Part shown: in pieces, positions 1-32,000 of the stretch
How positions within the stretch are numbered: the stretch's first letter is position 1
How the letters are laid out: each line of letters opens with the position of its first letter
NCBI GenBank assembly: GCA_015257795.3
Contig: CP072208.2
Coordinates: 120,001-152,000 of the forward strand
Direction: 5' to 3'
Length of the DNA stretch: 32,000 nucleotides
DNA from: Candidatus Nanogingivalaceae bacterium
GTDB lineage: Bacteria > Patescibacteriota > Saccharimonadia > Saccharimonadales > Saccharimonadaceae
The notes under the pieces: generated by a model
The model's database searches: none
Told to the model about the DNA's origin: nothing
The model's input: the letters and a program-made list of their open reading frames with translations, nothing else
Translations under genes and position numbers: made by a program

Positions 1-411
1 TTTCAATTAGACGATAAATTTTTTGAAGGAATTGGCATTGAACGAATGTCGCCAGAAGAAGCAGCGGTGTTTAAGCAACACGTTCAAGAAGAACTCGAAG
101 CTCGAATCGGTGAACGGATTATGGATGGTTTTTCAAGTGAAAAACTTGAAGAATTTGAACAAATTATGGATGATGCTCCAGGGTTCGTTGACAATTGGCT
201 AAGACTAAACGTTCCAGACTTTCGAAATGACAAGACTTTTGCAGCGTTAGTTCAAAACAACAATGGTCAAGAGACTCGTCAAGTTATATCTGAATTTGCC
301 TCATTGAAGTGGCTTGAAATTAACCGCCCAGATTTCAATCAAATCAGTATGCTTGTAATTAAAGAAATGCAAGACGAACTTAAAGCAAATATCGATAAAA
401 TTTTTAGCTAA
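1..411 (+). CDS. Small helical conserved hypothetical protein, probably 5'-partial
   Basis: The reading frame is open from base 1 (FQLDDKFFEGIGIERMSPEE...), so the true start may lie just upstream of the window. The track ORF starts at the internal ATG at 46. The acidic helical pattern ...QEELEARIGERI...EEFEQIMDD resembles small proteins (possibly DUF5663-like) seen in Saccharibacteria and Actinobacteria; this is from memory, not verified. Confidence 0.55.
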   Translation, partial: FQLDDKFFEGIGIERMSPEEAAVFKQHVQEELEARIGERIMDGFSSEKLEEFEQIMDDAPGFVDNWLRLNVPDFRNDKTFAALVQNNNGQETRQVISEFASLKWLEINRPDFNQISMLVIKEMQDELKANIDKIFS

Positions 412-416
412 AATAT

Positions 417-446
417 AAAACCGCGCAGAAGAGCGTGGTTTTATTT
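417..446. terminator. Bidirectional hairpin terminator between convergent genes
   Basis: aaaaccgcgc (417-426) pairs with gcgtggtttt (433-442) around a 6-nt loop. A-run and T-run flanks allow function on either strand. Confidence 0.55.
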
Positions 447-1328
447 TAGATAGCCGTTTTCAAAGCTTTTAGCAGCGGTTTCTTTACCGTTTGGTGTGAT
501 TAGTCTTTCAATCTTTAAAAACGTTCCTTCGGCGAATTTTAACGTTAAAGGCGAATTTTCAGGGTTAGAACTAACTACTTTTGCGCTTTTAACGATTATT
601 AAATGCTCACCGAGCTTAATTTTACTTTTTGGAAAAATTTCGAAAGCACGAATTTGCTGTTCGGCTTGCTCTGCAGTTTGCTCATCTTGAGAAAGAAGGG
701 CGTCACTTTTTTTAAGAAGTTGGCAATATTCAGCTTGCGAATCATCTTGTTTTAGTCCTTTAATTTCACCAGAGATAATTTTTGGTAAATCCCGCACAAG
801 CATTTCGGCGCCGATTTCACCACAAGTTTTATAAAGATCGCTTGCGGTTTCGGTTTTCAAAAGCTCAATTTCTTCTTGTGAATAAACATCGCCTGCATCC
901 ATTTCTTTCGAAAGTTTCATTAGTGAAACGCCAGTTTTTTCATCACCGTTTAAAATTGCGCTTTCAATTGGGCTTGAACCGCGATATTTAGGCAAAAGTG
1001 AAGGGTGAACATTCACAATAGCGGGTGTGAATAAATCGATGATTTCTTGCGGAATAATCCGACCAAAAGAAACCAAAACTCCCGCAGGTTTTTCGAATTT
1101 TTTAACGAAGTCGGTAATTTCTGACATTTTTTGCGGTTGAAGTACTGGAATATTAAACTTTTCACCAATTTGCTTCACTTTTGGCGCTTGAAACTTTTGC
1201 CCGCGACCTTTTCGAGAGTCGGGTTTGGTGATAATTCCGGCAATTTCGAAGCCTTCATCAATAAGTTTTTGGAGTGAAACGGCCGAAAAATCTTCCGTTC
1301 CAAAAAAGATTATTGGAGTTTTTTTCAA
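441..1328 (-). CDS. fmt: Methionyl-tRNA formyltransferase
   Basis: N-terminal ...PIIFFGTEDFS, the formyltransferase core VNVHPSLLPKYRGSSPIESAILNGDEKTGVSLMKL, and a position directly downstream of def. I prefer the TTG start at 1328 (MKKTPIIFFGT), preceded by GGGAGGA, over the track's GTG at 1346, which has no SD. The start is uncertain by 18 nt. Confidence 0.93.
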   Translation of the reverse strand: MKKTPIIFFGTEDFSAVSLQKLIDEGFEIAGIITKPDSRKGRGQKFQAPKVKQIGEKFNIPVLQPQKMSEITDFVKKFEKPAGVLVSFGRIIPQEIIDLFTPAIVNVHPSLLPKYRGSSPIESAILNGDEKTGVSLMKLSKEMDAGDVYSQEEIELLKTETASDLYKTCGEIGAEMLVRDLPKIISGEIKGLKQDDSQAEYCQLLKKSDALLSQDEQTAEQAEQQIRAFEIFPKSKIKLGEHLIIVKSAKVVSSNPENSPLTLKFAEGTFLKIERLITPNGKETAAKSFENGYLK

Positions 1329-1330
1329 GA

Positions 1331-3230: not shown

Positions 3231-3578
3231 ATGAAAGAAATTACAGATTTTTTAGATCTAATAAAACCAGAAAATGACAGGGAAATGTTTTCGGCGTTGA
3301 TTTATCTTGCGTTGATATTTTTCGAAACGGATAATTACGAAGGTATAGAATATCTTGCGAAAGATTATTACGGTCAATTGGTTTCTAAAGGGCGAGGTTT
3401 TTCTAATCCTGATAGTAAATTTTCGCCAAGCGTGGTGGAGTTTGGCGAATTAACTGGCTTTATGCTTGAAGATATTGAAAAGGTAAAATCTGGCAAAATA
3501 ACAAAAGATGAAGCAAGAAAAGCTAATTTAGATTATTTAAAGAATTACATTTTTAACACTTTGAAAAAAGACAATTAA
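3231..3578 (+). CDS. Hypothetical small protein
   Basis: SD taaggag 7 nt before the ATG. No recognisable motif. Its stop overlaps the priA stop on the opposite strand. Confidence 0.55.
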   Translation: MKEITDFLDLIKPENDREMFSALIYLALIFFETDNYEGIEYLAKDYYGQLVSKGRGFSNPDSKFSPSVVEFGELTGFMLEDIEKVKSGKITKDEARKANLDYLKNYIFNTLKKDN

Positions 3579-5539
3579 ATCAATCCTGGTGGGTCTAAGT
3601 CAACGCGCCACTGTGGCTTGCCTTGAAACTCGCGTGCAATCTCTAAAAGGGGCGCGCGTTTTTTGCTTTTAACTACAATTTGCCAACGATAAGTTTCGCC
3701 TACGCGCTCATAAAAAGCTGGCGTTGGACCAAAAATTTGTACATCTTTCGAAAATTTTTTGCGAATCTCGTGCGCTTCTTTCTGTGAATTTCGTACGGCT
3801 GAAATCTCGGTTTTATATACGCAGGTTAATTTTAACAGATATACAAAAGGTGGGTAGTTTTGTTTTTGGCGATTTTTAATTTCGAAATTATAAAATCCAG
3901 CGTAATCTTGATTTAAGCCAAATTGGATCGACGGAGCTTCAGGTTGATAAGTTTGAATAATTACATTTGATTCGCTAGAATGCCGCCCAACACGACCAAT
4001 CACTTGTGAAATTAACTGAAAATTTCGCTCGCTCGAAGTAAAATCAGGCAAAGCTAATCCCGCATCGGCCTGAACTACGCAAACGGTTTTTAATTTTGGT
4101 AAATCTAGACCTTTTGCAATAACTTGGGTGCCAATAATAATATCAATTTCACCGTTGCGAATTTCACTATAAAGCTTTTCGACGGTTTCATTTTTGTCAC
4201 TATCTGCATCGAAGCGTGCAACTTTTTTCTGCGGAAAGAGTTTTCGAATTTCTTCTTCGATTGCTTTTGTACCGATTCCTTTATGGATAATTTCTGCTTC
4301 ACCGCAATCTGGACAAGAAATTGGTGGGCGTTCTTTGTGCCCACAAATATGACATGACAATTGAAATTTATCGGCGTGTAAAGTTAGCGGAACAAAACAA
4401 TTTGGACAAAGTGCCATCCATCCGCAATTGTGGCAAAGTGTAATACTGGCCGAACCACGACGGTTGTGATAAATTAAAACCTGTTTATTTTCGCTTAAAG
4501 TTTGCTCCATTTCGGCGAGCATTTTTTTCGAAAAAAAGCGGTGGTTTTTCGAATCTTTTTTTGTTAAATCAACTAGTTCAATTTTTGCTGGTTGAGCTTC
4601 TTTTTTGGCGAGTTCGGTTAGTTTAATAATTTCGTTTCCGCCATTTTTTTCAGATAATTCGGCTAAGAAATAATCTTCAATTAGCGGTGTTGCAGAGCCA
4701 AAAATTGCTTTAAAATTAAAATTCGAAGCCAAAAAACTGCTTGCGCGTAAAGCAGAATATTTTGGTGTTTGATCTTGTTTGAAACTTGGCTCGTGACACT
4801 CATCAATTACAATTAGCCCCAAGTTTTTTACGGGCGCAAAAAGGGCAGAGCGTGCACCAATAATAACTTGCGGTTCGGGGTCGTTCAAAATTTTTAACCA
4901 AGTTTTGTGGCGTTCAGCTTCAGTTTGGTGTGAGTGAATGATTTTAATATTACTAAAATGTTTTTCGAAATTCAAAACTAGTTGTGAAGTTAATGCGATT
5001 TCGGGAACTAAAATTATTGCGGATTGCTGGTTGGCTAAAATTTTTTCGGTTTGATTTATATAAATTGAAGTTTTTCCCGATCCGGTAATTCCATGAAGAA
5101 GAACTGTTCCGGAGTGAATTTTATCAAGTTTTTTGATTGCGTTTTGTTGTTGGCTTGTGTATAAAAAATTTGAACAGCTCTCTTTTTCATCTGTTAATTT
5201 GATTTTTTCTTTTTTTGAAGAACGGCGATTCTTGCCTAAACCGGCTGGTAAAATTCCGCTCAAAACTTGCGAAAGAGGCGTCGCATAATATTGGCTCATC
5301 CATTTCGAAAGTTCAACTAAATGTTTTGGAATTGGCGTTTTTTCGACTATTTTTAGAATCTCGCGAGTTTCGAAATCTGGTTTTTCGACTTCTTTAAAAA
5401 CCACACCAAACATATTTTTTTTGCCAACAGGAATTTGTACAATTTGGCCGGTTTCGAGTTTTTCTTTTGAGGCATAAGTAAAAACTTCGCTATTAGTGCG
5501 AACAATTTTTAACGGTGCAACTTCAAAATAAAAATCCAT
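3575..5539 (-). CDS. priA: Primosomal protein N' (replication restart helicase PriA)
   Basis: Walker A GITGSGKT, DExH box IDECHE, a Cys-rich zinc-binding insertion (CHNCGW..CPNC..CHICG..CPDCG) and helicase motif VI QVIGRVGR. Confidence 0.95.
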   Translation of the reverse strand: MDFYFEVAPLKIVRTNSEVFTYASKEKLETGQIVQIPVGKKNMFGVVFKEVEKPDFETREILKIVEKTPIPKHLVELSKWMSQYYATPLSQVLSGILPAGLGKNRRSSKKEKIKLTDEKESCSNFLYTSQQQNAIKKLDKIHSGTVLLHGITGSGKTSIYINQTEKILANQQSAIILVPEIALTSQLVLNFEKHFSNIKIIHSHQTEAERHKTWLKILNDPEPQVIIGARSALFAPVKNLGLIVIDECHEPSFKQDQTPKYSALRASSFLASNFNFKAIFGSATPLIEDYFLAELSEKNGGNEIIKLTELAKKEAQPAKIELVDLTKKDSKNHRFFSKKMLAEMEQTLSENKQVLIYHNRRGSASITLCHNCGWMALCPNCFVPLTLHADKFQLSCHICGHKERPPISCPDCGEAEIIHKGIGTKAIEEEIRKLFPQKKVARFDADSDKNETVEKLYSEIRNGEIDIIIGTQVIAKGLDLPKLKTVCVVQADAGLALPDFTSSERNFQLISQVIGRVGRHSSESNVIIQTYQPEAPSIQFGLNQDYAGFYNFEIKNRQKQNYPPFVYLLKLTCVYKTEISAVRNSQKEAHEIRKKFSKDVQIFGPTPAFYERVGETYRWQIVVKSKKRAPLLEIAREFQGKPQWRVDLDPPGLI

Positions 5540-5638
5540 ATATCTTTATTTTACATCAAAAGGTTTAAAAAATAAAATAAATATAGCTTGCGAAAAAAGC
5601 TAAAATTTTGTAAAATAGAAATACGAAAAGGTGAGGAT

Positions 5639-5959
5639 ATGGTAGATTTAGATATTTTTATTACATCACGAGTTAAGCGAAAAATTGTCGTATTTTTTGT
5701 TACGTATCCAGTTATTAAAATGCACTCTCGTGGCCTTGCCAAACTTTTAAAAGAAGATCCAGGAAACATTCAACGCGAACTTGCCAAGCTTGAAAAAGCC
5801 GGATTTTTATTTAGGGAAAAGAAGAAAAATACCTATACTTATTTTGCGAATACGAATTTTTTGTTTTTCTCCGAATTGCAGTCTATCGTAGTGAAAGTTC
5901 GCGAGCAAAACAGTGTTGCGCGTTCAAACAATTATATCGAGAGGTCTGTTAAAAGATAG
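5639..5959 (+). CDS. Winged-helix transcriptional regulator (ArsR/MarR-like fold)
   Basis: ATG at 5639 with SD aaaggtgagg; the track's TTG at 5588 has no SD. The wHTH-like stretch is SRGLAKLLKEDPGNIQRELAKLEKAGFLFREKKKN. Divergent from priA. Confidence 0.65.
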   Translation: MVDLDIFITSRVKRKIVVFFVTYPVIKMHSRGLAKLLKEDPGNIQRELAKLEKAGFLFREKKKNTYTYFANTNFLFFSELQSIVVKVREQNSVARSNNYIERSVKR

Positions 5960-5968: not shown

Positions 5969-7603
5969 ATGACGGTTGAACAAATTTTTGAGCAAATTTT
6001 AAAGAATCGTGGAATTTCAAAAGAGAATCGTGAAGCTTTTCTGAATCCGAATTATGATAACCAGCACGATCCTTTTTTGTTGCCGGATATGGAAAAAGCG
6101 GTTGAGCGATTACTTATTGCCCACAAAAAACAAGAAAAAATTACAGTTTATGGCGATTATGATGTTGATGGTGTTTCAGCTTCAACAGTGATTTTGGCAG
6201 CTTTCGAAAAATTCGGTTTTAAAAATGTGGATTATTTTTTGCCCGATCGTTTTAAAGATGGCTACGGAATGAACGAGCGTGGCGTGAGAGTTCTTGCGGA
6301 TCGAGGAACGAACTTAATTTTAACGGTTGACTGTGGAAGTTTAAATCACGCTGAAATTGATTTTGCAAAAGGTTTTGGAATCGATACAATCGTAACGGAT
6401 CACCATAACATTGCCGAAGTTCAACCAAATGCAGTTGCGGTTGTAAATCCGCGCAGAAAAGAAAACAAATATCCGCAGGCTGAAAATTTTGCCGGCGTTG
6501 GAGTGGCGTTTAAATTGGTTCAAGCGCTTCAAACCAAACTCGAGGGCTTTCCTGCTGGCCAAGAAAAGTGGCTACTTGACATGGTGGCGCTCGGCACCGT
6601 TTGCGATATTATGAAACAAACGGTCGAGAATCGCCAAAACACTTTTTGGGGGCTAAAAGTTCTTTCGAAAACACGCCGAGCTGGTTTGAAATCGATGCTT
6701 GCACTAGCTGGCGTGAAAGAGCCGAAAAGTTCAACGCTTGGCTTTATCATCGGCCCACGAATCAATTCGGCTGGTCGGCTTGAAACTGCCGAAAAGGCAT
6801 TAGATTTAATGCTCGAAAAAGACTCTTTTGTTGCTTTCGAAAAAGCCAAAAATCTCGATGATTTAAATAAAAAACGCCGTAAAATTCAACACGAAGCGCT
6901 CGAAATTGCAATTCAAAAAGCCGAAGATTTTAAAAATAATAAGGTTTTGGTTGTAGCTGATGAAAGTTTTAACGATGGAATTATTGGAATTGTGGCGAGC
7001 GGATTGCTTGAACGTTTTAAAAAACCAGTTTTTGTGATTTCGATTGAGGGCGATGTAGCAAAGGGTTCGGCGCGTAGTTTTGGTGATTTTTCGGCGAGTC
7101 AAGCAGTGCAAAATGCAAGCGAAATTATTATTAAAGGCGGTGGTCACGATGCGGCCGCGGGCGTAACTTTGCCAACTTTAAAAATTGATGATTTTCGAAA
7201 AAGCGTGAACGATTTTTACGATTCATTAAAATTAAAAAACCAGCTCGAAAAGCTTTTGCCAAAAGTGGATGTTCAGCTTGAAGATTTTTCGCCAATTTCA
7301 TTAGAACTTTTTGAGAAAATTTCGCTTCTTGAGCCTTTTGGAAATGGGAATGAAGAGCCAACTTTCGAAATTAAGAATGCTTGCGTAATTGCACGCCAAG
7401 AAATGGGCGATAAAAATCAGCATCTGAAAATAACTTTAAGTGATGGCGAGCGTGAAATCAAAATGTTAAAATTTAATGCACCAAAAGATTTTTTTGCCGA
7501 AATAGATGAAAAAGTTGACGTGATTTTTTCGCTAGGTTTAAATGAATGGCAGGGTCAAAAAAATGTTGAAGGTCAAATTTTGCATTTAAAGAGGAGGAAA
7601 TAA
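5969..7603 (+). CDS. recJ: Single-stranded-DNA-specific exonuclease RecJ
   Basis: DHH family motifs: YGDYDVDGVSAS, TVDCGS, IVTDHH and GGGHDAAAG (DHHA1). Confidence 0.95.
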   Translation: MTVEQIFEQILKNRGISKENREAFLNPNYDNQHDPFLLPDMEKAVERLLIAHKKQEKITVYGDYDVDGVSASTVILAAFEKFGFKNVDYFLPDRFKDGYGMNERGVRVLADRGTNLILTVDCGSLNHAEIDFAKGFGIDTIVTDHHNIAEVQPNAVAVVNPRRKENKYPQAENFAGVGVAFKLVQALQTKLEGFPAGQEKWLLDMVALGTVCDIMKQTVENRQNTFWGLKVLSKTRRAGLKSMLALAGVKEPKSSTLGFIIGPRINSAGRLETAEKALDLMLEKDSFVAFEKAKNLDDLNKKRRKIQHEALEIAIQKAEDFKNNKVLVVADESFNDGIIGIVASGLLERFKKPVFVISIEGDVAKGSARSFGDFSASQAVQNASEIIIKGGGHDAAAGVTLPTLKIDDFRKSVNDFYDSLKLKNQLEKLLPKVDVQLEDFSPISLELFEKISLLEPFGNGNEEPTFEIKNACVIARQEMGDKNQHLKITLSDGEREIKMLKFNAPKDFFAEIDEKVDVIFSLGLNEWQGQKNVEGQILHLKRRK

Positions 7604-8598
7604 TGAAAGTTTTATTATTTAGAGATGACGAAAAAATATTCGCAAAAAGTGGCGTTGGTCGCGCAATGAAGCACCAAGAAGCTGCGTTAAAATTAGCCGG
7701 CGTAGATTTTACTACCGACTCATCTGAAGATTTTGATATAATTCATCTAAATACTATTAATCCAAAGTCTTATTTATTGGCAAAAAAGGCTCGCAAGAAT
7801 GGTAAAAAAGTGGTTTTTCATGCACATTCCACTGAGGAGGATTTTCGAAATTCATTTGCGCTTTCGAATCTTGCGGCGCCAGCTTTTAAAAAGTGGCTCG
7901 TGAAGTGCTATAACACCGCTGATGTAATCTTAACGCCAACCGAATATTCGCGTGATTTGCTTTTGAAATATAATTTGAAAGCGCCAATTATCCCAATCTC
8001 GAACGGAATAGATCTTTCGCAATTTTCGAAAAATCCAGAAAAAATCAAAGCTTTTCGAGAGTATTTTAAACTCAAAAAAGATGAAAAAGTTGTGATTTCA
8101 GTGGGGCATTATTTTGAGCGAAAAGGTTTACCAGATTTTATGGCGGTGGCTCGTGATTTTCCAGAGGTAAAATTTATTTGGTTTGGTCACACGCCGGCTG
8201 CGGCGCTAACTGAACATGTAAAGAAAGCGATTCGAAAAAAACCTGAAAACGTAATTTTGCCGGGTTATATTTCGGGCGAAATTATTCAGGGTGCGTTTAT
8301 GAGTGCAGATATGTTCTTTTTCCCGAGCTACGAAGAAACTGAGGGGATTGTTGTTCTTGAGGCTTTGGCGGCGAAATGCCAGGTGCTAGTTCGAAATATT
8401 GGTGTGTATGATTCTTGGCTTTCGAAAAATGAAAATTGTTTTATGGGTAAAAACAACGAAGAATTTACAGAGGCGATTGAGAAATATTTGAGCGGTGAAG
8501 TTAATTCAACTGTTGAAAAAGGTTATGAAGTTGCAAAAAGTAAAAGCCTCGAAAAAATTGGTGCGCAACTTAAAAGAATCTATGAAGATTTGATCTAG
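7603..8598 (+). CDS. Glycosyltransferase, GT4/GT-B family
   Basis: The start overlaps the recJ stop (TAATG). The C-terminal GT-B motif FFFPSYEETEGIVVLEALAAKCQVLV matches the E-x7-E signature. Confidence 0.85.
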   Translation: MKVLLFRDDEKIFAKSGVGRAMKHQEAALKLAGVDFTTDSSEDFDIIHLNTINPKSYLLAKKARKNGKKVVFHAHSTEEDFRNSFALSNLAAPAFKKWLVKCYNTADVILTPTEYSRDLLLKYNLKAPIIPISNGIDLSQFSKNPEKIKAFREYFKLKKDEKVVISVGHYFERKGLPDFMAVARDFPEVKFIWFGHTPAAALTEHVKKAIRKKPENVILPGYISGEIIQGAFMSADMFFFPSYEETEGIVVLEALAAKCQVLVRNIGVYDSWLSKNENCFMGKNNEEFTEAIEKYLSGEVNSTVEKGYEVAKSKSLEKIGAQLKRIYEDLI

Positions 8599-8716
8599 GC
8601 TTTTATAAAAAAATTAATAAGATATTTAGTTTCTATTTTCGTAAAATCGTTCAAAATTGGGCGATTTTATTTTCTTCTTGCTTTTTTAGAAAAACTTTGG
8701 TAAAATAGTAATCAGT

Positions 8717-8935
8717 ATGAGTATTAGTGTAACAAGGAAAGACCAGAAAGAAGCTAACGAAAATATCATTCGTCGCTTTAATCGAAAAGTTCTACAAAGT
8801 GGAGTTTTGAGCGAAGCTAAAGCATCAATGCGATTTTCAAAGCCTCTAAGCAAGGTTGAACGACGCAAAAAAGCAATCGTTCGAAATCAACGCCGTGCTG
8901 AAAAAGCACAAAAAATGCGACTTGGTATTCGCTAA
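8717..8935 (+). CDS. rpsU: 30S ribosomal protein S21
   Basis: Small, basic protein: ...ENIIRRFNRKVLQSGVLSEAKASMRFSKPLSKVERRKKAIVRNQRR. Confidence 0.9.
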   Translation: MSISVTRKDQKEANENIIRRFNRKVLQSGVLSEAKASMRFSKPLSKVERRKKAIVRNQRRAEKAQKMRLGIR

Positions 8936-8987
8936 AAAACAGATAAATTCCAGTCGAGAGGCTGGATTTTATTTTTAAAGGAGGAAA

Positions 8988-9425
8988 ATGCTAAAAGAAC
9001 AAATTAACGCCGATTTAAAAACTGCAATGCTTGCGCGAAATGCTTTCGAAACTACAGTTTTGCGAGGTCTAAAAGCTTCAATTTTGGACGAAGAAGTAAA
9101 ACTTGGCAAGCGCGAAGAAGGTTTAAACAATGATGAAATTGAAACGCTAGTTGCGCGAGAAGTGAAAAAGCGCAAAGAAGCGGCCGGTTTATTAGATGAA
9201 GAACGTGCCGAAAATGAACTAAAAGAAGCCGAAATTCTTTCGAAATATTTGCCAGAAATGGCGAGCGAAGATGAAATTCGCGCAGCTGTAAAAGCTGAAA
9301 TTTCAGCAATGGGTGAAGCTTCGATCAAGCAAATGGGTGCAATTATTGGCAAAATGAAAGCAAAATTTGGTAATTCTGCCGATGGTGCTGTTTTGGCGAG
9401 AATCGTGAAAGAAGAATTGAATTAA
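8988..9425 (+). CDS. yqeY: GatB/YqeY domain protein
   Basis: L..DLKTAMLARN......LRGLKA.I and the C-terminal MGAIIGKMKAKFGNSADGAVLARIVKEEL. The rpsU-yqeY adjacency is common in Gram-positive bacteria. Confidence 0.85.
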   Translation: MLKEQINADLKTAMLARNAFETTVLRGLKASILDEEVKLGKREEGLNNDEIETLVAREVKKRKEAAGLLDEERAENELKEAEILSKYLPEMASEDEIRAAVKAEISAMGEASIKQMGAIIGKMKAKFGNSADGAVLARIVKEELN

Positions 9426-12783: not shown

Positions 12784-12860
12784 GCCACCTTAGCTCAGCT
12801 GGTTAGAGCAGCTGTTTTGTAAACAGCAGGCCTTCGGTTCGAATCCGAAAGGTGGCTCCA
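12784..12860 (+). tRNA. tRNA-Thr (anticodon UGU), CCA encoded
   Basis: Cloverleaf folded by hand: acceptor gccacct/aggtggc, D arm gctc..gagc, anticodon stem gctgt/acagc with loop ttTGTaa, T arm ttcgg-ttcgaat-ccgaa, discriminator t, then cca. Confidence 0.93.
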
Positions 12861-12885
12861 AGTATTTTTTAATACAAGTTAAAGA

Positions 12886-12971
12886 GCTGGGATAGTGAAG
12901 CGGTCAAACACAACAGACTGTAAATCTGTCGGCAGATGCCTTCGAAAGTTCGAATCTTTCTCCCAGCACCA
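12886..12971 (+). tRNA. tRNA-Tyr (anticodon GUA), long variable arm, CCA encoded
   Basis: Acceptor gctggga/tcccagc, anticodon stem acaga/tctgt with loop ctGTAaa, long variable arm (cggcagatgccttc), T arm gaaag-ttcgaat-ctttc, discriminator a, then cca. Confidence 0.93.
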
Positions 12972-18941: not shown

Positions 18942-18970
18942 AAGCTTATAAAAGCGTTTTATTTTGATAA

Positions 18971-19139: not shown

Positions 19140-19157
19140 AATTTAAAAGGAGGAAGA

Positions 19158-22055: not shown

Positions 22056-22072
22056 CCAAGATATTGACAATC

Positions 22073-22116
22073 AAAATAACTTATGCTATAATACAAGCAT
22101 AAGTTATTTTTTAAAC
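22073..22116 (+). terminator. ileS terminator hairpin overlapping a promoter-like TTGACA-17-TATAAT
   Basis: 14-bp stem aaaataacttatgc / gcataagttatttt (22073-22086 / 22097-22110) followed by a T-run. TTGACA (22064-22069) and TATAAT (22087-22092, in the loop) are spaced 17 nt apart. Confidence 0.6.
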
Positions 22117-22144
22117 AAAAAACATAAAAAATCAAAAGGCAAAA

Positions 22145-22618
22145 ATGGAAAATTTTAAGATAAACGATTATAGTACGAACGAGCAGGATAAAAAGTCTCT
22201 TGAACGAGAGAGTAATTTTGAAGAGTTTCAAGATTTTAAATTCGATTCTTTCGAAAGCTTAAATTCTGAACAGCAAAAAGAAATCGAAAAAACACAAGAG
22301 AGTTCAAAAAATGAAGCTCTTGAGAATTTGAACGATATTTATGCGCGCGAACGAAACACCGATCGCGAAAACAGTAGTTTTTTCTTGCGAGATGATGAAA
22401 TTAAAAACTTGAATATTGTGCATTTCGAAGATTATGACGCAAACTTCGAAACTTATGAAGGTCGCGAAAACGAATTCAGTTTGCGTGAAAATCAATTTAA
22501 AACGCAAGAAGAACTTGTTCAAGAAATTAGCACAATGAAATCTGTTCGCCGAGAAGTTCCAGCAGGGCAACGTTTCTCAAATATTATTCGGGCAATTTCT
22601 GGAAAAATTGCAGCTTAA
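22145..22618 (+). CDS. Acidic hypothetical protein
   Basis: ORF with SD-like aaaaggc upstream. Rich in E, N and F. No signal peptide and no known motif. Confidence 0.55.
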   Translation: MENFKINDYSTNEQDKKSLERESNFEEFQDFKFDSFESLNSEQQKEIEKTQESSKNEALENLNDIYARERNTDRENSSFFLRDDEIKNLNIVHFEDYDANFETYEGRENEFSLRENQFKTQEELVQEISTMKSVRREVPAGQRFSNIIRAISGKIAA

Positions 22619-22630
22619 TATCTGGCAAAA

Positions 22631-22660
22631 AGAAAATCGGTAGAAATATCGATTTTCTTT
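22631..22660 (+). terminator. Hairpin terminator after the 22145 gene
   Basis: agaaaatcg / cgattttct stem with a 10-nt loop, then ttt. Confidence 0.5.
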
Positions 22661-22670
22661 TAAAAAAGTG

Positions 22671-22699
22671 TTGACATTTTATTACGCTTGTGGTAAAAT
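22671..22699 (+). promoter_or_regulatory. Promoter of the surface-protein genes
   Basis: TTGACA (22671-22676), a 17-nt spacer and an extended -10 TGgTAAAAT (22691-22699). Confidence 0.55.
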
Positions 22700-22736
22700 A
22701 CGGGAGTAAATAAATTAAAAATAAACAAGGACAGAA

Positions 22737-25073
22737 ATGAAGAACGGGAATAATCTCAATCCTACACCTGACACAAGTAAGTCTTTTGAGGAAGCTTATG
22801 GTGCTTGGGATACTCTGCAAGAGGAGTTAGCCCAGCAAAAGCGTGAAGAAGAACTTGCAAAGGGTGCAGAAAATTACGAGAAAGCTGTTCGTGATGCGAT
22901 CGATAAAGGTGATCAAACTGCCTTTAACGAGATGGCTGAACGTGACGAGCACTATCGTAAAATGGAAAATGGTGAAAATCGAATAGATGATGAACAGCCA
23001 TACGAATCTTCAGTACTTTCGCAAGAAGAAATGGCACAAGCTGTAAAATCTAGCGATGAAATTCAAAAAATGGATTTGCTTGCTCGTAGAGTCCAAAATG
23101 CTGGAAGCGACGAAGCTAAAGCAAAATACCAACAACAACTAGTTGAACTTTCGAATGATTTTTCGAAAGGTGAAGGTGCTATTGCAGTTAAAGATTGGCA
23201 CGACCAATCTCAATGGGATTTTCGAGAAGCTAGTCAAGCTGAAGGATTCCGCCAAAAAGTTCTTGATTCAATTTGGGAAAAAGCAATGGAAACTCCAAAA
23301 GCTGACGATCAAGAAAATGATAACTCAAATGACAATGATCAAGAACCGCAGGTTGCTGATAATATAGATAATCAACAAGCTCAAAACGTTGATAATATCG
23401 ATGATCAAAAAGTTAGTGTTAACTATAATGTTGAAAATAATATCGACAATCAAAAAGTTAGCGTCAATTATAATGTTGAAAATAACATTGATGATGAGCA
23501 GAAGCCAGAAATGATTGAACAAAACGAGTATGAGAAGAAATTTGACGAAATGCTCGTAAATGGCGCAACAGCTGATGAATTAGCAAGATATCGTCGTTCA
23601 ATTCGCGCAGACTTTATTAATACAGGAGAAATGACACCTGAAAATAAAGAGATGTTAAAGCGTATGGAAAAAGTTGGTTATGCAGTTGGCGATATTGCAC
23701 GAGAAAACGCTAAAGATACAGAAAACAATGCCGAAGAAAAAGTTGGACGATTCCAAAAACTCAAGAAAAAAATTGGTAAAAATATCTTGAAACTTGGCGC
23801 ATTAGCTGGTCTTGGTATAACTGTATTCGGAGTTGGTCGCCAAGCTACTGAGTCGGTTCGTACTAACAATAGTGAACCAAAAGTAGAAAATAAAACTAAG
23901 ACAGAACTTGGTGATGTTTCTGCGACTGAATTCAGCAAACATGCAAGCTTTGATAGCAGCAATGCTCAAGAGCAAGAAAAGAACTTTAATAACGGAAAAT
24001 ACGATTCAGAAAATAACGACTACAATAAAGTTGATCAAAAAGAGAATCAGTATTCGATTGGTACAAGTGTAGCGGAACTTTCAAATGAAGACTTCCAGAA
24101 AAATATGATTGAATCGCACAGTGAAGATGACATTGAATATATGGGACAATTCTTTGTTAACGATTCTGAAGCGGCTCAAAAATATTTGGGAATGTCGAAC
24201 GGCGAAGTTGACAACTTAGTTGATGCTGCACGAAACGGCGACCAATCTGCTTTCCAAAAATTGAATGAAGCTTATTCAAACTATATGGCTGGCGCTAAAG
24301 TTGTTGGTCAAGAAGCTTTGGAAGGTGATTATTACTCAATCTTTGTGAATGGTGATAAAAATTATGCTCACTCTGAAGGTGCGTTTGGCGGAACAGCGCG
24401 TGTTGTTCAATTGAAAAATGGTCAACAAATTTTGATCCGTGACCAATGTAAGCAGTTGATGATGAAGAAGCAGGTGAATGTTCCTAGCGGATGGACAACT
24501 CCAACAATTCCGTTTGGTCAAACTTATACTCCACCCGCTCCAAACACACCACCAACACCGGAAACTCCACCGGAGACACCTCCAAACACTCCACCGGAAA
24601 CTCCACCGGAGACACCTCCAAACACTCCACCGGAAACTCCACCGGAGACACCTCCAAACACTCCACCGGAAACTCCACCGGAGACACCTCCAACACCGGA
24701 AACTAAGTTTACAGAAGATCAGTCAATCTATAACTACGGCGGCTCTGTAACTAAAATGGATGCTGGAGAATTAACTCAAGCTCCAACTGCGGCAGAAGAA
24801 GCTGGTAAGGCGACTTATGATGTAGCACCAGGTGCTGAAACTACGATTGCTGCTGAAGGTATAGATAGTAGTATCGATAACTCAAATATAGCTAACCAAG
24901 CTAGTCAGTATGGTGGTGAAATAACTACTGATCAAGCTGCAGCACAAGCTGCGCAACAAGTTGAGGCTTCAGCAAATGCGCAAGCTAATGCTCAAGATCA
25001 AAATCAGTCTGTAAATATCGGTGGTCAGAATATTTCATATGATGATATTCAAAGAGCACAGAACGGGCAATAA
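22737..25073 (+). CDS. Large repeat-containing single-pass membrane or surface protein
   Basis: No signal peptide. An acidic N-terminal region of about 350 aa contains NID(N/D)QKVSVNYNVEN repeats. One TM segment (ILKLGALAGLGITVFGVG, nt about 23781-23840) follows. The extracytoplasmic region carries a (PETPPETPPNTP)n linker and a Q/A/N-rich tail. Confidence 0.7.
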   Translation: MKNGNNLNPTPDTSKSFEEAYGAWDTLQEELAQQKREEELAKGAENYEKAVRDAIDKGDQTAFNEMAERDEHYRKMENGENRIDDEQPYESSVLSQEEMAQAVKSSDEIQKMDLLARRVQNAGSDEAKAKYQQQLVELSNDFSKGEGAIAVKDWHDQSQWDFREASQAEGFRQKVLDSIWEKAMETPKADDQENDNSNDNDQEPQVADNIDNQQAQNVDNIDDQKVSVNYNVENNIDNQKVSVNYNVENNIDDEQKPEMIEQNEYEKKFDEMLVNGATADELARYRRSIRADFINTGEMTPENKEMLKRMEKVGYAVGDIARENAKDTENNAEEKVGRFQKLKKKIGKNILKLGALAGLGITVFGVGRQATESVRTNNSEPKVENKTKTELGDVSATEFSKHASFDSSNAQEQEKNFNNGKYDSENNDYNKVDQKENQYSIGTSVAELSNEDFQKNMIESHSEDDIEYMGQFFVNDSEAAQKYLGMSNGEVDNLVDAARNGDQSAFQKLNEAYSNYMAGAKVVGQEALEGDYYSIFVNGDKNYAHSEGAFGGTARVVQLKNGQQILIRDQCKQLMMKKQVNVPSGWTTPTIPFGQTYTPPAPNTPPTPETPPETPPNTPPETPPETPPNTPPETPPETPPNTPPETPPETPPTPETKFTEDQSIYNYGGSVTKMDAGELTQAPTAAEEAGKATYDVAPGAETTIAAEGIDSSIDNSNIANQASQYGGEITTDQAAAQAAQQVEASANAQANAQDQNQSVNIGGQNISYDDIQRAQNGQ
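23394..23483 (+). repeat. Two tandem 45-nt in-frame repeats (NID[D/N]QKVSVNYNVEN)
   Basis: 23394-23438 and 23439-23483 encode near-identical 15-aa units. The DNA differs mostly at synonymous sites (gttagtgttaactat vs gttagcgtcaattat). Confidence 0.85.
24558..24692 (+). repeat. Perfect 36-nt tandem repeat, about 3.75 copies (PETPPETPPNTP)
   Basis: ccggaaactccaccggagacacctccaaacactcca is repeated identically at 24558, 24594 and 24630. A 27-nt partial copy lies at 24666-24692. Degenerate P/T-rich sequence flanks the tract. Confidence 0.9.
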
Positions 25074-25097
25074 TTTAAAAAATAAAAAAGGCAAAAA

Positions 25098-26531
25098 ATG
25101 TTAATTAAAAATAAAGTACAAAATTTGGGGGTTGCAGTAATTGCAACCCTCGTCGGGGCAGCATTTTTTGGTTCAACAGCATTTGCTTATGGGCCAGAAC
25201 GGCAAACTTTTACTGCCGAAAACCCTGCAGATCATGTGACATTTAACTCTATCACAAACAACCCAACAGTTGGTGATGAACGAAATTTCGTTCGAGTTCG
25301 CCAAGTTGGTAGCGCACAATTTGTTGACAGTGTTGATATTGTTCCTGGTCAAGAATATGAAGTTTATGTCTATTACCATAATAATGCAAAAAGTTCTTTA
25401 AATTCAAAAGAAAATAATTATCGCGGTATTGCACTAGATGCAAAACTTCGAACAATTCTACCTTCAAAAATTGCTAAAGGTGGAACAGAACGAGTTATTG
25501 CAGAAATTACTGCAAGTAATGCACGACCACAAAAAGTTTGGGATGAATCTACATTGCGATCACCTTCGCGAGAAGTTGCGTTGCGATATATCCAAGGTTC
25601 AGCCAAAATCACAACAAAAGGAAGCATTAATGGTCAAGCTATTTACGGTGAAAGTCTTCTAGGCAGCGGCGTAAAACTTGGTTTTGATGGTCTAAACGGT
25701 ATCCTTCCTGGATGTGATCACTACTCAGGTTATATCACATATCGATTTAAAGCGGACTATCCTGATTTTGAAACAACTAAAACTGTTTCAAAAGCTGGTG
25801 CAAATTCATTTGCAAAAAGCCAAACTGTAGGTATTAATGACGAAGTTGAATTCAAAGTTACTTACAAAAACACTGGAACAACCCTTCAAAGTAATGTTAA
25901 TATTAAAGATATTCTTCCAGCAGGTATGACACTTGTTCCTGGAACAACTCGAATTACAACTCCATCAGACCAAACTGGTAAAACTTTAAACGATGATATT
26001 TCAAAGGCTGGAATTAATATCGGAAATTACTCAGCTGGTGGTTCAGCAACGGTAGTGTTCCGCGTAAAAATTGATTCTTCAAAATTAATTTGTGGAGCTA
26101 ACACTTTCACAAATACCGCACAAGCGATTACTCAAAATGGTGGAAAATCTGATTCTGCGAAAGTAGTTGTTCAAAAGAATTGTACACCACAAGAGAAAAA
26201 AGAATATTGTGAAATTCCTGGAAAAGGTAATTTGAAGAAAGATGATGTAAACTGTAGCGATAAATGTAAAATCCCTGGTCTTCAACATCTTTCAGCTAAC
26301 GACGCGAACTGTGCTGAAGTTCCAACAGAGCTTCCACACACTGGTCCTGCTGAAGCTGCAATGATGGTAATTGCGATTATGGCAATCACAGGTGCTGTAG
26401 CATACTGGTTCCGAAGTCGTGAAGAGATGAAAAAAGCGACTGCAGGTCTTGCAACAAAAGCAAACGACATCGTTGATCACAAAGCAACAAAAACTGAAGC
26501 TAAAAAATCTGAAAAAGTAGAGAAAAAATAG
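25098..26531 (+). CDS. Secreted surface protein with DUF11-like repeat domain and LPXTG-like sorting motif
   Basis: Signal peptide MLIKNK..AFFGSTAFA/YG. A DUF11/CARDB-like segment reads VEFKVTYKNTGTTLQSNVNIKDILPAGMTLVPGTT...ATVVFRVKI. Two Cys-bounded C.IPG modules are present. LPHTG (26331-26345) is followed by a hydrophobic helix and RSR, then an additional K-rich tail. Confidence 0.8.
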   Translation: MLIKNKVQNLGVAVIATLVGAAFFGSTAFAYGPERQTFTAENPADHVTFNSITNNPTVGDERNFVRVRQVGSAQFVDSVDIVPGQEYEVYVYYHNNAKSSLNSKENNYRGIALDAKLRTILPSKIAKGGTERVIAEITASNARPQKVWDESTLRSPSREVALRYIQGSAKITTKGSINGQAIYGESLLGSGVKLGFDGLNGILPGCDHYSGYITYRFKADYPDFETTKTVSKAGANSFAKSQTVGINDEVEFKVTYKNTGTTLQSNVNIKDILPAGMTLVPGTTRITTPSDQTGKTLNDDISKAGINIGNYSAGGSATVVFRVKIDSSKLICGANTFTNTAQAITQNGGKSDSAKVVVQKNCTPQEKKEYCEIPGKGNLKKDDVNCSDKCKIPGLQHLSANDANCAEVPTELPHTGPAEAAMMVIAIMAITGAVAYWFRSREEMKKATAGLATKANDIVDHKATKTEAKKSEKVEKK

Positions 26532-29526: not shown

Positions 29527-30312
29527 ATGGATTTTATTAAAATTTCGAAAAAGAATTCTTTTTGGGGAAGTATTGCACATATTTTTCTAAATATTATTTT
29601 AGCGGTAACCATATGGCTTTCAATTTACATTACAAAAACGCCGTGGGTTGCAATATTGTTAGTATTTATTAGTAAATGGCGAACTTTTGCGGTTCGACCA
29701 AGGTTTTGGCTTGCAAACGTAAAATCAAATCTTGTAGACTTGATTTTCTCTTTAAGCCTAGTTATTCTAATGTTTTCAACGGGTGTTGATTATATAATTT
29801 CGCAAGGTTTCTTGCTTGCAGTTTATATTTTTTGGCTAACAATAATTAAACCGCACTCATCTGAAAACTCTATGAAGATTCAGGCATTATTAACAGTGTT
29901 TTTCGGTTTATCAGCCTTATATTCTATAACTTACGCTTGGGGCGAAATTCCAGTTTTCGTGGCTGCTTTCTTGCTTGGGTATGCTACTCTTCGTCATATT
30001 CTATCTTCTCGCGTAAATAAAAATATTGAGATCTTAAGCTTATTTTGGGGAATGATTTTAGCTGAATTTGCATGGATTTTTAATTTTTTGGTAATCGGCT
30101 ACAGGATTCTTCTTGCACCATATTTTAACTTTGTTATTCCACAGGCTGCGATAATTTTAACAGTTTTGAGCTTTGTTGCTTTTGATGTTTTGGATAGCGG
30201 AGAAGAGAAGAAGAAAGATATAAAAGAGCTTTTACCGGAAATTATTTTTGCTACAATTTTGATTTTAACGCTGTTAATATTCTTTTCAACAATTCCAGTT
30301 GCGAAAAGCTAA
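29527..30312 (+). CDS. Polytopic integral membrane protein, unknown function
   Basis: About 7-8 hydrophobic segments. No recognisable motif. Confidence 0.6.
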   Translation: MDFIKISKKNSFWGSIAHIFLNIILAVTIWLSIYITKTPWVAILLVFISKWRTFAVRPRFWLANVKSNLVDLIFSLSLVILMFSTGVDYIISQGFLLAVYIFWLTIIKPHSSENSMKIQALLTVFFGLSALYSITYAWGEIPVFVAAFLLGYATLRHILSSRVNKNIEILSLFWGMILAEFAWIFNFLVIGYRILLAPYFNFVIPQAAIILTVLSFVAFDVLDSGEEKKKDIKELLPEIIFATILILTLLIFFSTIPVAKS

Positions 30313-30333
30313 TTTAGAAAATGAGGAGGAAAA

Positions 30334-31521
30334 ATGGATAATAAACCAGATAACGAATTACAAACAAAAGAACTGCAAACGAAAAATAATTCAAAAAACC
30401 AAATTATCATAGCGGTTGTTTTAACTACATTGGTTTTTGGTACAATTGGTATCTTTCAGTTATTTTCAATATTTGGATCGAAAATAAATCAAGGTGCGTC
30501 AATTAATTTTTCAAATAGCAATGAGAATTCAAGTTTTTCAAAACAGTCTGATTCGAATTCGATCGAATCGGTTGCGAGTAGAGTTTCGCAAAGCGTAGTT
30601 TCGATTGTTGGAAAAAGCCAAAGGTCTTTAAGATATTTTAGTTCATCGGTTGAAACGGCTAGTGCTGGAACGGGGATTATCGTTAGTGAAAACGGATATA
30701 TTTTAACAAATAAGCATGTTGTTTCAAAAGCTTCTGAAATTTCAGTTGTTACGAGTGACGGGAACTCTTATGATAACGTAAAAGTTGTATCGACTGATCC
30801 TTTGAATGATATTGCAATATTAAAAATTTCGAACGCAAAAGGTCTTAAAGCTGCTGAACTTGGTGATTCGAAAAAACTAAATATTGGCCAACAGGTAATT
30901 GCGATTGGTAATGCTCTTGGTGAATACGACGGTACGGTTACGAGCGGAATTATTTCTGGTGTTGGTCGAACTGTTGTCGCTGCAGATGGTGCTGGTTCAA
31001 ATAAGGAGATGTTAACAGATATGATTCAAACAGATGCCGCAATTAATACGGGAAATTCTGGCGGACCATTAGTGAATGCACAGGGTCAAGTTATTGGAAT
31101 TAATACTGCCGTAGCTTCAAGCGGTCAGGGAATTGGTTTTGCAATTCCAATTTCTTCTGTTAAAGGGATGCTAAAATCAATTAGCAGGGGTGAAACTCCA
31201 AAACGTGCATATTTGGGCGCTAATTATGTAGCAGTGACTCCACAAATTCAAAAGGAATATAAACTTACTGTTTCGAAAGGTGCTTTGATCAAATCACGCG
31301 TTCGTAGTCGAAATGCTATAATTTCAGATAGCCCAGCGCAACAAGCAGGTCTTCAAGAGGGTGACGTCATTACTAAGATTGATGGGATAGAAGTTTCAAA
31401 AAATACCAGCTTAGGTTCTTTGATTGGCGAAAAGAATGTTGGCGATAAAGTTCAAATTACATACATTCGCAACGGTCAAGAAAAAACAACTTCAGTAATA
31501 CTTGAAGAATACCAAAAATAA
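30334..31521 (+). CDS. htrA: HtrA/DegP-family serine protease with PDZ domain
   Basis: N-terminal TM anchor. The triad contexts are TNKHVV (His), NDIAILK (Asp) and GNSGGPLVN (Ser). The C-terminal PDZ reads GLQEGDVITKIDG. Confidence 0.92.
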   Translation: MDNKPDNELQTKELQTKNNSKNQIIIAVVLTTLVFGTIGIFQLFSIFGSKINQGASINFSNSNENSSFSKQSDSNSIESVASRVSQSVVSIVGKSQRSLRYFSSSVETASAGTGIIVSENGYILTNKHVVSKASEISVVTSDGNSYDNVKVVSTDPLNDIAILKISNAKGLKAAELGDSKKLNIGQQVIAIGNALGEYDGTVTSGIISGVGRTVVAADGAGSNKEMLTDMIQTDAAINTGNSGGPLVNAQGQVIGINTAVASSGQGIGFAIPISSVKGMLKSISRGETPKRAYLGANYVAVTPQIQKEYKLTVSKGALIKSRVRSRNAIISDSPAQQAGLQEGDVITKIDGIEVSKNTSLGSLIGEKNVGDKVQITYIRNGQEKTTSVILEEYQK

Positions 31522-31560
31522 AAAATAATACTAGGGTTATTACTCTAGTATTATTTTTTA
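31521..31560. terminator. Bidirectional terminator between htrA and prmC
   Basis: Perfect 11-bp stem aataatactag / ctagtattatt (31524-31534 / 31545-31555) with a 10-nt loop and A/T runs on both sides. Confidence 0.6.
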
Positions 31561-32000
31561 TCTAAAACGATTGTGTAGTTTTCAGATTTTGATTTAACTA
31601 AACCGCAACTGTTCGCATATTTTTCAATTTCTTCAAATTGGCACGGGTCGGCCTCAAGAATAATTTTTCTTAATTTTGGTAAATCTTGCGCCTGGAATAA
31701 TAGCTCAAAAATAAGTTCTAACCCGTTTTTTCGAGCATAAAGCGCAATTTGTGGCTCATGATGTAGCTCGTTATTCTTTTCAAAGTCAACCCAATCACGA
31801 TTAACGTAAGGCAAATTTGCGGTAATAATTGTGATTTTCGAAAGAATATCTGATGGGATTTTCTCTAATAAATTGCTTTCGAAAAGAGGGATTTCTTGGT
31901 TTAAAAGCTTTTTTGCGTTCAGATTTGCTACAGCGAGAGCTTGTAGAGAAATGTCACTCGCAAAAACTTCAACTTTTTCACCACATTCAGCTTTTAGGGT
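31551..32000 (-). CDS. prmC: Release-factor glutamine N5-methyltransferase (PrmC/HemK-like), 5'-partial
   Basis: The minus-strand frame is open to the window end: ...VEVFASDISLQALAVANLNAKK...ITIITANLPYVNRDW...EPQIALYA. The NPPY catalytic motif is present as NLPY. The track's 31814 start (TTG) is internal. Confidence 0.8.
   Translation of the reverse strand, partial: TLKAECGEKVEVFASDISLQALAVANLNAKKLLNQEIPLFESNLLEKIPSDILSKITIITANLPYVNRDWVDFEKNNELHHEPQIALYARKNGLELIFELLFQAQDLPKLRKIILEADPCQFEEIEKYANSCGLVKSKSENYTIVLDKK

Follow-up and report, generated by a model that had tools for sequence, protein, structure and literature searches.

Highly iterated palindromes have been a puzzle for 30 years and were, until now, essentially confined to cyanobacteria. 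They include HIP1 (GCGATCGC) and alternate words such as GGCGCC, GCCGGC, GCSGC and GGGATCCC. These words are known to co-occur with methyltransferases of matching specificity (PMC4390886), and the HIP1 sites are conserved (PMC5861425). Further, it has been reported that methylated HIP1 raises natural transformation more than 100-fold (bioRxiv 10.1101/2024.09.10.611283), and that HIP1 abundance co-varies with DNA-uptake genes (bioRxiv 10.64898/2026.06.24.733823). In HIP1, the uptake signal and the methyltransferase target appear to be two sides of one mechanism. Here, we describe TTCGAA, a perfect palindrome of 6 bp, and the likewise palindromic octamer TTTCGAAA, in a 32,000-bp stretch of contig CP072208.2 (positions 120,001 to 152,000; referred to as the window). 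HIP1 and its alternates are the closest precedent for this word. A preliminary description of the window had weighed other hypotheses, and the cyanobacterial palindromes were not among them.

By exact count, the window (GC content 36.4%, where about 38% had been estimated by eye) holds 85 copies of TTCGAA, i.e., 2.66 per kb, and 44 full octamers, i.e., 1.4 per kb. The earlier hand counts of about 85 and 44 are thus matched. The decamer TTTTCGAAAA occurs 6 times, and since about 6 are predicted from the octamer context, it shows no excess. Markov models of orders 0, 1, 2, 3 and 4 predict 10.6, 26.4, 45.0, 51.4 and 75.8 copies of the hexamer, respectively, the last of these already including both constituent 5-mers. 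For the octamer, 1.07, 4.87 and 8.6 copies are expected at orders 0, 1 and 3; the zero-order values agree with the rough figures of about 10 and 1 that had been given before. Against the order-1 (dinucleotide) model, TTCGAA ranks first among the hexamers by z and is the sole palindromic hexamer that stands out. Within-gene shuffling of synonymous codons yields 31.6±4.7 hexamers against the 77 observed in coding sequences (CDS; z 9.7) and 7.7±2.6 octamers against 40 (z 12.3), while shuffling of the codon order yields 21.5 and 2.9. The octamer is, therefore, enriched 41x at order 0, 9x at order 1 and 5x over the synonymous shuffles. Dinucleotide and codon models, which had been proposed as a check, leave the excess unexplained. 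An artefact of composition is ruled out by the Markov orders 0-4, by both kinds of shuffle and by relatives of matched GC. FtsZ-identical proteins are present in 667 index blocks.

These relatives also show where the word is found. Comparison of FtsZ and IleS places the window in the Saccharibacteria, with a metagenome-assembled genome (MAG), 'uncultured Candidatus Saccharimonas sp.', as the nearest GenBank genome, and the window is identical to ENA ERZ28636235 scaffold_4 (L163). The enrichment is not confined to the window, a point on which the preliminary description had asked for a check: its flanks carry 1.8-2.5 TTCGAA per kb, and a motif-rich set of about 25 independent assemblies comprises three related species. 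Species A consists of the window and about 18 assemblies with 2-6% divergence among them. Species B (L001, L084, L087, L088 and L129; GenBank CAUQKG01) differs from A by about 16% at the nucleotide level, and species C (L085 and L086; contig in QWCO01) differs from both by about 17-18%. The assemblies of all three have a GC of 36-38% and carry TTCGAA at 2.3-3.6 per kb, or 3.0-4.3x the count expected at order 1; the hexamer is within the top 18 in every one of them and holds rank 1 or 2 in most. All the motif-rich loci show IleS identity of at least 90% or FtsZ identity of 92-100%, whereas loci with IleS identity of at most 67% or FtsZ identity of at most 72% carry 0-0.7 copies per kb, mostly below expectation. 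The motif-poor set includes more than 100 loci from Saccharibacteria and other Patescibacteria. Compared with its 21 GC-matched outgroups (GC below 0.42), TTCGAA is 11-fold higher in the clade and is the most differential hexamer (median fold 0.82). The motif-poor Saccharibacteria even show a mild avoidance of the word, with observed/expected ratios mostly below 1 and a flank odds ratio (OR) of 0.69. The motif-rich group is one genus-level clade of low-GC, gut-type Saccharibacteria. No comparable iterated palindrome was found in the other Saccharibacteria loci, where the remaining candidates are weak. One of them, GGTACC in locus L152, turned out to be an effect of protein sequence, as 24 of its 28 copies lie in phase 0 (z 0.6). 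Among the matches listed for IMG/VR viral contigs with two octamers within 30 nt, there were only chance matches and none with a clade-like density. In the literature, no paper was found that links an over-represented TTCGAA or TTTCGAAA to Saccharibacteria or to any genome.

What is favoured in this clade is the palindrome as a whole. There is no information around the TTCGAA core beyond ±1, except for a mild preference for C at -2. T at -1 and A at +1 are found in 64-69% of the copies against 40-49% in controls (in the window, 68-69% against a background of 42-46%); the full word can be written (c)TTTCGAAA(g), with soft outer positions. Around a CG centre, the TT and AA half-sites are coupled in all three species with an OR of 2.9-5.0, and TTT and AAA with an OR of 7.1-9.5. 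The corresponding OR is about 0.7 in the outgroups and about 1 for TG, CA, TA and GC centres. Likewise, the CpG/TpG ratio is 1.6-3.3 for TTCGAA against 0.2-1.0 for the one-off cores ATCGAA, CTCGAA, GTCGAA, TACGAA, TCCGAA and TGCGAA, and CG/(TG,CA) is 1.6-3.3 in the TT_AA context against a median of 0.6-0.7. The coupling of the half-sites indicates that the duplex palindrome, and not a half-site or TCGA, is the favoured unit. It is the pattern that a symmetric protein reading double-stranded DNA would give. Three other units or sources were discarded: the half-site TTTCG because of the flank coupling, the TaqI-type site TCGA because there is no rise in one-off cores such as ATCGAA and GTCGAA, and a repeat or mobile element because no information extends past ±1-2 nt around the core.

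As for the location, 77 of the 85 copies lie in open reading frames (ORFs), with codon phases of 31/16/30, and 8 are intergenic. The word had been said to occur in all the codon phases and between genes, which is correct, as are the four examples quoted for it. Three intergenic copies fall inside the genes of tRNA-Thr and tRNA-Tyr and five elsewhere. Of the latter, four are full octamers (16827-16834, 16050-16057, 31836-31843 and 31877-31884), where about 0.65 would be expected; the fifth copy is at 8880. The tRNA copies (tRNA-Thr and tRNA-Tyr, 12784-12971, plus strand) are outside the phenomenon: two belong to T-loops, at 12838 (GGTTCGAATCC) and 12949 (GTTCGAATC), and the third, at 12941, is inside tRNA-Tyr. 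The T-loop as the source of the motif covers only the copies in 12784-12971, and the flanks of the other copies differ.

Within the genes, the synonymous codon that completes the word is favoured wherever the context can form it, and the OR is about 4 whichever the phase. TTC is used before Glu in 33/60 cases against 95/397 elsewhere (p 2e-6), TCG in the context ..T|TCG|AA. in 30/74 against 74/536 (p 2e-7), and CGA in the context.TT|CGA|A.. in 16/27 against 100/373 (p 7e-4). A cause at the level of translation would be a codon, codon-pair or dipeptide preference peculiar to the lineage. A codon-pair Markov model does come close to the observed counts in the two three-codon phases (28.1 vs 30 and 12.2 vs 16), and Phe and Glu are commoner in the IleS of the clade. 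This bears on the dicodon check that had been suggested. The fit of the model is nevertheless circular, because the pair table already holds the half-sites (T|TCG 76% vs 39% overall and TCG|AA 36% vs 14%). Moreover, F-E, xT|Ser|Lys/Asn and xTT|Arg|Axx all lead to the same hexamer, and their odds ratios are equal; the synonymous shuffles fall short of the counts, the intergenic octamers are enriched, and only the CG centre shows the half-site coupling. A palindrome is also meaningless for translation. Three unrelated codon-pair biases converge on one palindrome, and the relatives are without them. A translational cause is thus effectively refuted, and we consider it very improbable. The preliminary description had likewise judged such a preference unlikely as the sole cause and had concluded that some process acts on the DNA itself, and the synonymous nulls, the context odds ratios and the half-site coupling bear this out.

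All codon phases and non-coding DNA alike show a force on the DNA that favours the palindromic word as a whole. In the ORFs of the window, it fills 77 of 197 synonymous opportunities (39%), and it also causes amino-acid replacements. The densest long gene is ileS (19131-22055, plus strand; probably with a GTG start), with 12 copies and 12/19 opportunities filled; here, TTC-GAA writes 7 of the 10 Phe-Glu dipeptides. Further motif-rich genes are priA (3575-5539, minus strand; 9 copies, 9/18 filled) and the gene of a GT4-family glycosyltransferase (7603-8598, plus strand; 6 copies in 1 kb, 6/8 filled). A strain-variable islet (16004-18905, plus strand; GC about 0.30) has 3 copies, and its two genes, SLATT_4 (16908-17471) and SMODS/AGS_C (17471-18793), together fill 2/19 opportunities. 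Two surface-protein genes (22737-26531, plus strand), one encoding 778 aa with tandem repeats and the other a DUF11/CLIPPER protein, are partly strain-variable; they have 3 copies and fill 3/21. There is one copy each in ftsA and ftsZ. All these per-gene counts agree with the earlier ones, and the uneven density that was read from them is real. Opportunity explains it in ftsZ, which is motif-poor since the gene has just 2.5 possible synonymous sites per kb; gene age explains it elsewhere: the SLATT, SMODS and two surface-protein genes fill 5/40 opportunities against 72/157 in the rest (p=1e-4). Similarly, TTCGAA reaches 2.92 per kb in core DNA and 0.99 per kb in strain-specific segments. The force acts on resident DNA over time, and recently acquired genes are, therefore, poor in the motif.

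Its mark is also visible in the proteins. Clade IleS has about 59 Phe against 43 (about 38% up) and about 96 Glu against 80 (about 20% up). Phe-Glu dipeptides number 10-11 against 5.7 in the outgroups (6.2 in the low-GC ones), and Ser-Lys/Asn 9 against 5.8. In the invariant FE columns of IleS, TTC-GAA is used in 5-8 of 28 outgroup sequences against 3-8 of 8 clade sequences. In variable columns, the clade has FE, SK, SN or LRN where the outgroups have YK/YT, FD/FA/FT, PSE, IAA or LVA. The gain of motif-making dipeptides shows that the force is strong enough to fix amino-acid replacements.

Distortion of the proteome, depletion in recent genes, specificity for a clade and some 1-3 copies per kb in all frames are also features of the DNA uptake sequences (DUS) of Neisseria and the uptake signal sequences (USS) of Pasteurellaceae. 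A competence pilus or another uptake receptor could bind TTTCGAAA, and preferred uptake followed by recombination would then spread the word without any methylation. All three species carry the same word, Saccharibacteria are naturally competent (PMC10633639), and there is a type IV pilin gene in the window (10008-10426). The pilin is, in contrast, split and strain-variable, and competence genes are phylum-wide while the motif is found in this clade only. Known uptake signals are 9-12 nt long and non-palindromic, whereas the half-sites here are coupled as for a symmetric reader of the duplex. An AT-rich word of 6-8 bp also discriminates poorly, and its spacing is no more even than random. A pure uptake signal is, for these reasons, unlikely, though it retains some weight. 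With regard to the pilin gene itself, the class-III signal MKKHKLYEG|FTIIEVV... is present, and the gene seems to be broken into two overlapping ORFs of 54 and 85 aa. The gene calls vary by strain (85, 105 and 124 aa), which suggests a frameshift, phase variation or pseudogenisation.

The sites are retained and yet keep turning over. Between species, the Jaccard conservation of TTCGAA is 0.23-0.39, compared with 0.13-0.22 for controls of the same composition, with a CpG or one-off (0.13-0.20 for CpG words of the same composition), and with 0.08-0.18 for palindromes of the same GC (the test of Xu et al.). Retention is thus 1.5-2x better than in controls, and turnover continues. In shared columns, the three species have 34, 37 and 38 copies, and only 10 of 66 positions are common to all. 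So few shared sites at equal density amount to a dynamic equilibrium. Relative to other contexts, TT_AA shows a shift of about 2-6 fold in its CpG:TpG balance. The force per site is weak; its effective bias, expressed as Ne*s (effective population size times selection coefficient), is roughly 1-2. The total of TTYRAA is 2.8x up (6.1-8.7 vs 1.7-3.3 per kb in the outgroups). This indicates that new TT..AA frames are created, partly via amino-acid replacements. A 'decay halo' of one-substitution variants is raised over the outgroups as well: CTCGAA/TTCGAG 2.4x, TTTGAA/TTCAAA 1.9x and TGCGAA/TTCGCA 1.9x.

Sites that are not shared lie mostly opposite TTTGAA or TTCAAA in the other species. It may be asked whether mutation and repair alone are responsible, with 5-methylcytosine (m5C) at TTCGAA and a Vsr-like very-short-patch (VSP) repair of the T:G mismatch in TTTGAA/TTCAAA, the enrichment being a neutral by-product. 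There is a precedent in E. coli, where the excess of CCWGG arises from Dcm/Vsr. The raised CG/(TG,CA) ratio in TT_AA fits such a process. So does the gain of CpG from TpG, which, when polarised by an outgroup, is about 2.5-3x higher in TT_AA (6/40 in A and 2/15 in B) than elsewhere (0.062 and 0.045). VSP repair predicts, on the other hand, that TTTGAA and TTCAAA are depleted, and they are not (observed/expected 0.65-1.25). It also predicts a constant TTYRAA total in place of the rise. CpG transitions dominate the turnover of other WWCGWW words too (68% vs 77%), which suggests a generally high CpG<->TpG flux; the argument that the CpG-transition spectrum proves VSP repair was withdrawn on this account. 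Unpolarised C/T polymorphism is 17.1% at the site against 16.8% at other CpGs, and so there is no signature of an m5C hot spot. Neither a Vsr nor an m5C methyltransferase gene was seen in the window and its flanks. The repair bias that had been listed among the earlier hypotheses is, in its simplest form, contradicted by the undepleted TTTGAA/TTCAAA and by the lack of CpG hypermutability at the site. We regard it as quite improbable.

Other polymorphism data come from the alignments of species A and B. In every context, polymorphism is 2.2-2.8x higher for CpG than for non-CpG transitions. Polarised losses at TTCGAA (3/62 and 4/79) equal those of other CpGs (0.036-0.040). In species B only, TTTGAA sites that segregate for TTCGAA are in excess (31% vs 12.7%, p=0.003). 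For a test of fixation bias by derived-allele frequency, species A offers few strictly polarised sites, namely, 6 gains and 3 losses. It was also observed that CpG is over-represented in the window (odds 1.29) and that, per site, TpG->CpG changes are no rarer than CpG->TpG ones, which is unusual at 36% GC. In addition, when the window at 19500-24100 is compared with the species B loci, both A and B prove polymorphic for TTCGAA versus TTTGAA/TTCAAA at 11 or more positions (e.g., 19812, 20013, 20073, 20081, 20700, 20754, 22303, 22424 and 22445). Such sharing could reflect recurrent mutation at the same CpGs or exchange between the species.

The conservation data bear on another proposal, namely, that the word is the site of an abundant nucleoid-associated or chromosome-organising protein, its density being selected for compaction, segregation or domain structure. 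Xu et al. proposed such a structural role for HIP1 (PMC5861425). The palindromic unit with its coupled half-sites, the retention of sites above controls and the similar density in three species would all agree with it. The sites, however, turn over fast, there is no regular spacing within the 32 kb, and no candidate protein was identified in the window and its flanks. Known sequence-specific organisers such as ParB, Noc, SlmA and MatP use tens of sites and not thousands. An organising role is, therefore, improbable, less so than VSP repair and more so than the uptake signal.

The account that we favour, and hold with moderate confidence, is that TTCGAA is an iterated palindrome of the HIP1 kind. 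It would be read by a symmetric DNA-recognising protein specific to the clade, probably a methyltransferase, and its sites would accumulate via transformation and recombination or via methyl-directed repair. The reader would be dimeric. Because TTCGAA is a classical Type II site (BstBI/AsuII), the most likely reader is a DNA methyltransferase, which may be an orphan or belong to a restriction-modification (R-M) system. TTCGA(m6A)A methylation (m6A, N6-methyladenine) has been observed in a MAG. Of the hypotheses listed in the preliminary description, an uptake or recognition signal and a methyltransferase target both stay viable. DNA that is marked or recognised in this way would be favoured in natural transformation and homologous recombination with conspecific DNA, or else in methyl-directed repair. 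The sites would then build up through a weak fixation bias tied to these processes, as is now proposed for HIP1.

Several observations weigh against this account. The spacing of TTCGAA in the window has a coefficient of variation (CV) of 1.12 against 0.98±0.10 for random placement; the copies are thus randomly placed and not more even, with no sign of regular placement within 32 kb, whereas the quasi-periodic placement of HIP1-like palindromes is on a scale of 10-90 kb. The targets of R-M systems are normally avoided and not enriched. The enrichment of the octamer is modest beside the 15-300x reported for HIP1. Polymorphism within species is a weak sign of a current bias, as the polarised counts are small and diversity is raised in B only. 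Finally, no methyltransferase, restriction enzyme, Vsr or other candidate reader was found in the window and about 16 kb of flanks (about 48 kb in all). A search for a TTCGAA or TCGA methyltransferase or restriction gene had been recommended earlier; it was carried out locally and gave none within the window or about 10 kb on either side. Two genes near the window were examined and dismissed. The uracil-DNA glycosylase (UDG) gene 1.7 kb to its right, considered as a G:T repair enzyme, encodes an ordinary family-1 Ung, and the methylase beside it is PrmC/HemK, a release-factor methylase.

A more specific form of the methyltransferase account can be put forward only tentatively and is rather unlikely. 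In it, TTTCGAAA is an epigenetic self-recognition word, which a methyltransferase of the clade would mark and by which the competence and recombination machinery would prefer marked conspecific DNA over that of the bacterial host. If true, this would be the first uptake or recombination signal in the Candidate Phyla Radiation (CPR), and the HIP1 system of cyanobacteria would have been re-invented independently, in an AT-rich form.

The copies of TTCGAA are distributed over the window as follows, all the positions being exact starts. From 0 to 5 kb, they lie at 221, 639, 907, 1092, 1245, 1519, 1637, 1705, 2404, 2417, 2479, 2734, 3321, 3747, 3881, 4243, 4527, 4548, 4722 and 4964. From 5 to 10 kb, they lie at 5304, 5369, 6203, 6664, 6836, 7194, 7364, 7844, 7863, 8025, 8231, 8390, 8421, 8880, 9045, 9239 and 9714, and from 10 to 20 kb at 10893, 11124, 11290, 12285, 12630, 12647, 12838, 12941, 12949, 14011, 15324, 15930, 16051, 16828, 17298, 17667, 19535 and 19812. 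Between 20 and 26 kb, the starts are 20013, 20073, 20081, 20514, 20700, 20754, 20796, 21268, 21350, 21944, 22250, 22424, 22445, 23150, 23162 and 25447, and between 27 and 32 kb, they are 27234, 27376, 28151, 28657, 28851, 28883, 29196, 29544, 30552, 30828, 30867, 31272, 31837 and 31878. The octamers TTTCGAAA span 220-31884. They start at 220, 638, 906, 2416, 2733, 3320, 3746, 3880, 4526, 4963, 5303, 5368, 6202, 6663, 6835, 7193, 7363 and 7843 in the first 8 kb, and at 8024, 8420, 9044, 9238, 9713, 11123, 11289, 14010, 15323, 15929, 16050, 16827, 20012, 20513, 20699, 20795, 21943, 22249, 23161, 27375, 28656, 29195, 29543, 31271, 31836 and 31877 in the rest. The decamers TTTTCGAAAA start at 2415, 2732, 4525, 7192, 8023 and 29194.

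Some other features of the region were also noted. The islet occupies a hotspot between nrdR and ileS, a strain-variable gap (16004-18905 in the window; about 11,900-14,800 in L161-L170). In the window and in L163, the gap holds SLATT_4 and SMODS/AGS_C, a defence pair of the CBASS-like, nucleotide-signalling kind. In its place, further strains of this species have an Excalibur-domain protein, a DUF5655 protein, DUF3611 or small ORFs that are unrelated. The 778-aa surface-protein gene contains a perfect 36-bp tandem repeat of 3.8 copies (24556-24693), which encodes a segment rich in Thr-Pro-Pro-Glu/Asn, and a 45-bp repeat (23392-23485). These repeats are the source of the top non-palindromic 8-mer outliers (ACTCCACC, CTCCACCG and others). 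A small conserved ORF between priA and recJ (5588-5959) has a weak winged-helix/helix-turn-helix (HTH) similarity (BilQ/Sta1/Csa3-HTH, E 3e-4 to 9e-3) and may encode a putative DNA-binding protein among the replication and repair genes. The non-coding leader upstream of ileS (18905-19155) and the region of S21 (rpsU, 8717-8935) at 8635-9004 are 94-95% identical between A and B, compared with 78-86% for the flanking coding DNA. In these two intervals, no Rfam family reached the gathering threshold; they may be candidate regulatory RNAs or leaders. Most species A assemblies (the source scaffolds of L161-L170) break about 6.6 kb to the left of window position 1, and the common break point suggests a repeated element such as an rRNA operon. 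Several short palindromes are under-represented in the window against the order-1 model, namely, ACGT (32 vs 83.6), CATG (48 vs 87), GTAC (23 vs 40.8) and GATC (66 vs 93), while GGTACC, GTATAC, CTATAG, ACCGGT and CCCGGG are absent; restriction avoidance may be the reason for this.

An independent case of a highly iterated palindrome would show that the phenomenon is general and not a cyanobacterial quirk. The present case has a different word, a tiny genome, a naturally competent and host-dependent phylum, and a sharp phylogenetic on/off boundary. The boundary provides a clean comparative design for finding the responsible gene, with three motif-rich species on one side and many GC-similar, motif-poor relatives on the other. 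Should the word serve as a mark for DNA uptake or recombination, it would be relevant to the question of how ultra-small epibionts distinguish self from host DNA, and better genetic tools for Saccharibacteria would be possible. In practice, TTCGAA is a strong k-mer signature for binning and tracking the clade in metagenomes. It also illustrates that a weak drive at the level of DNA can measurably reshape the composition of proteins.

Among the known systems, the avoidance of restriction sites in Type II R-M is similar in that TTCGAA is a classical palindrome of this kind, and it is of opposite sign, the word here being strongly enriched. With the VSP signature of Dcm/Vsr, the word shares the over-representation of a methylatable palindrome and a turnover that is largely C<->T at a potentially methylated cytosine. 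Unlike in E. coli, where an excess of CCWGG is accompanied by a deficit of CTAG/CTWGG, there is no deficit of the T:G-product word, the effect is far larger, and changes occur at all six positions along with amino-acid replacements. The DUS and USS resemble it in their density of about 1 per kb in coding and non-coding DNA, a comparison already drawn in the preliminary description and a fair one for the hexamer. They also resemble it in the distorted peptides, the poverty of recent DNA, the family- or genus-level specificity and the competent host. They differ in being asymmetric words of 9-12 nt with a pilin or unknown receptor, in contrast to a true palindrome of 6-8 bp with coupled half-sites, and the even spacing is missing here, as the CV indicates. 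HIP1 comes closest. Unlike HIP1, the word is AT-rich and belongs to Patescibacteria with 36% GC and a genome under about 1 Mb; its fold-enrichment is lower, and it is found in one genus-level clade and not phylum-wide. Like HIP1, it is a palindrome of 6-8 bp present about once per kb or more in all frames and between genes, with raised one-off variants and with sites that are kept above control palindromes and still turn over. The core is, in both, a site of the Type II methyltransferase type with softer outer positions, the word is lineage-specific and differs from one lineage to another, and the phylum is, like the HIP1 hosts, naturally transformable.

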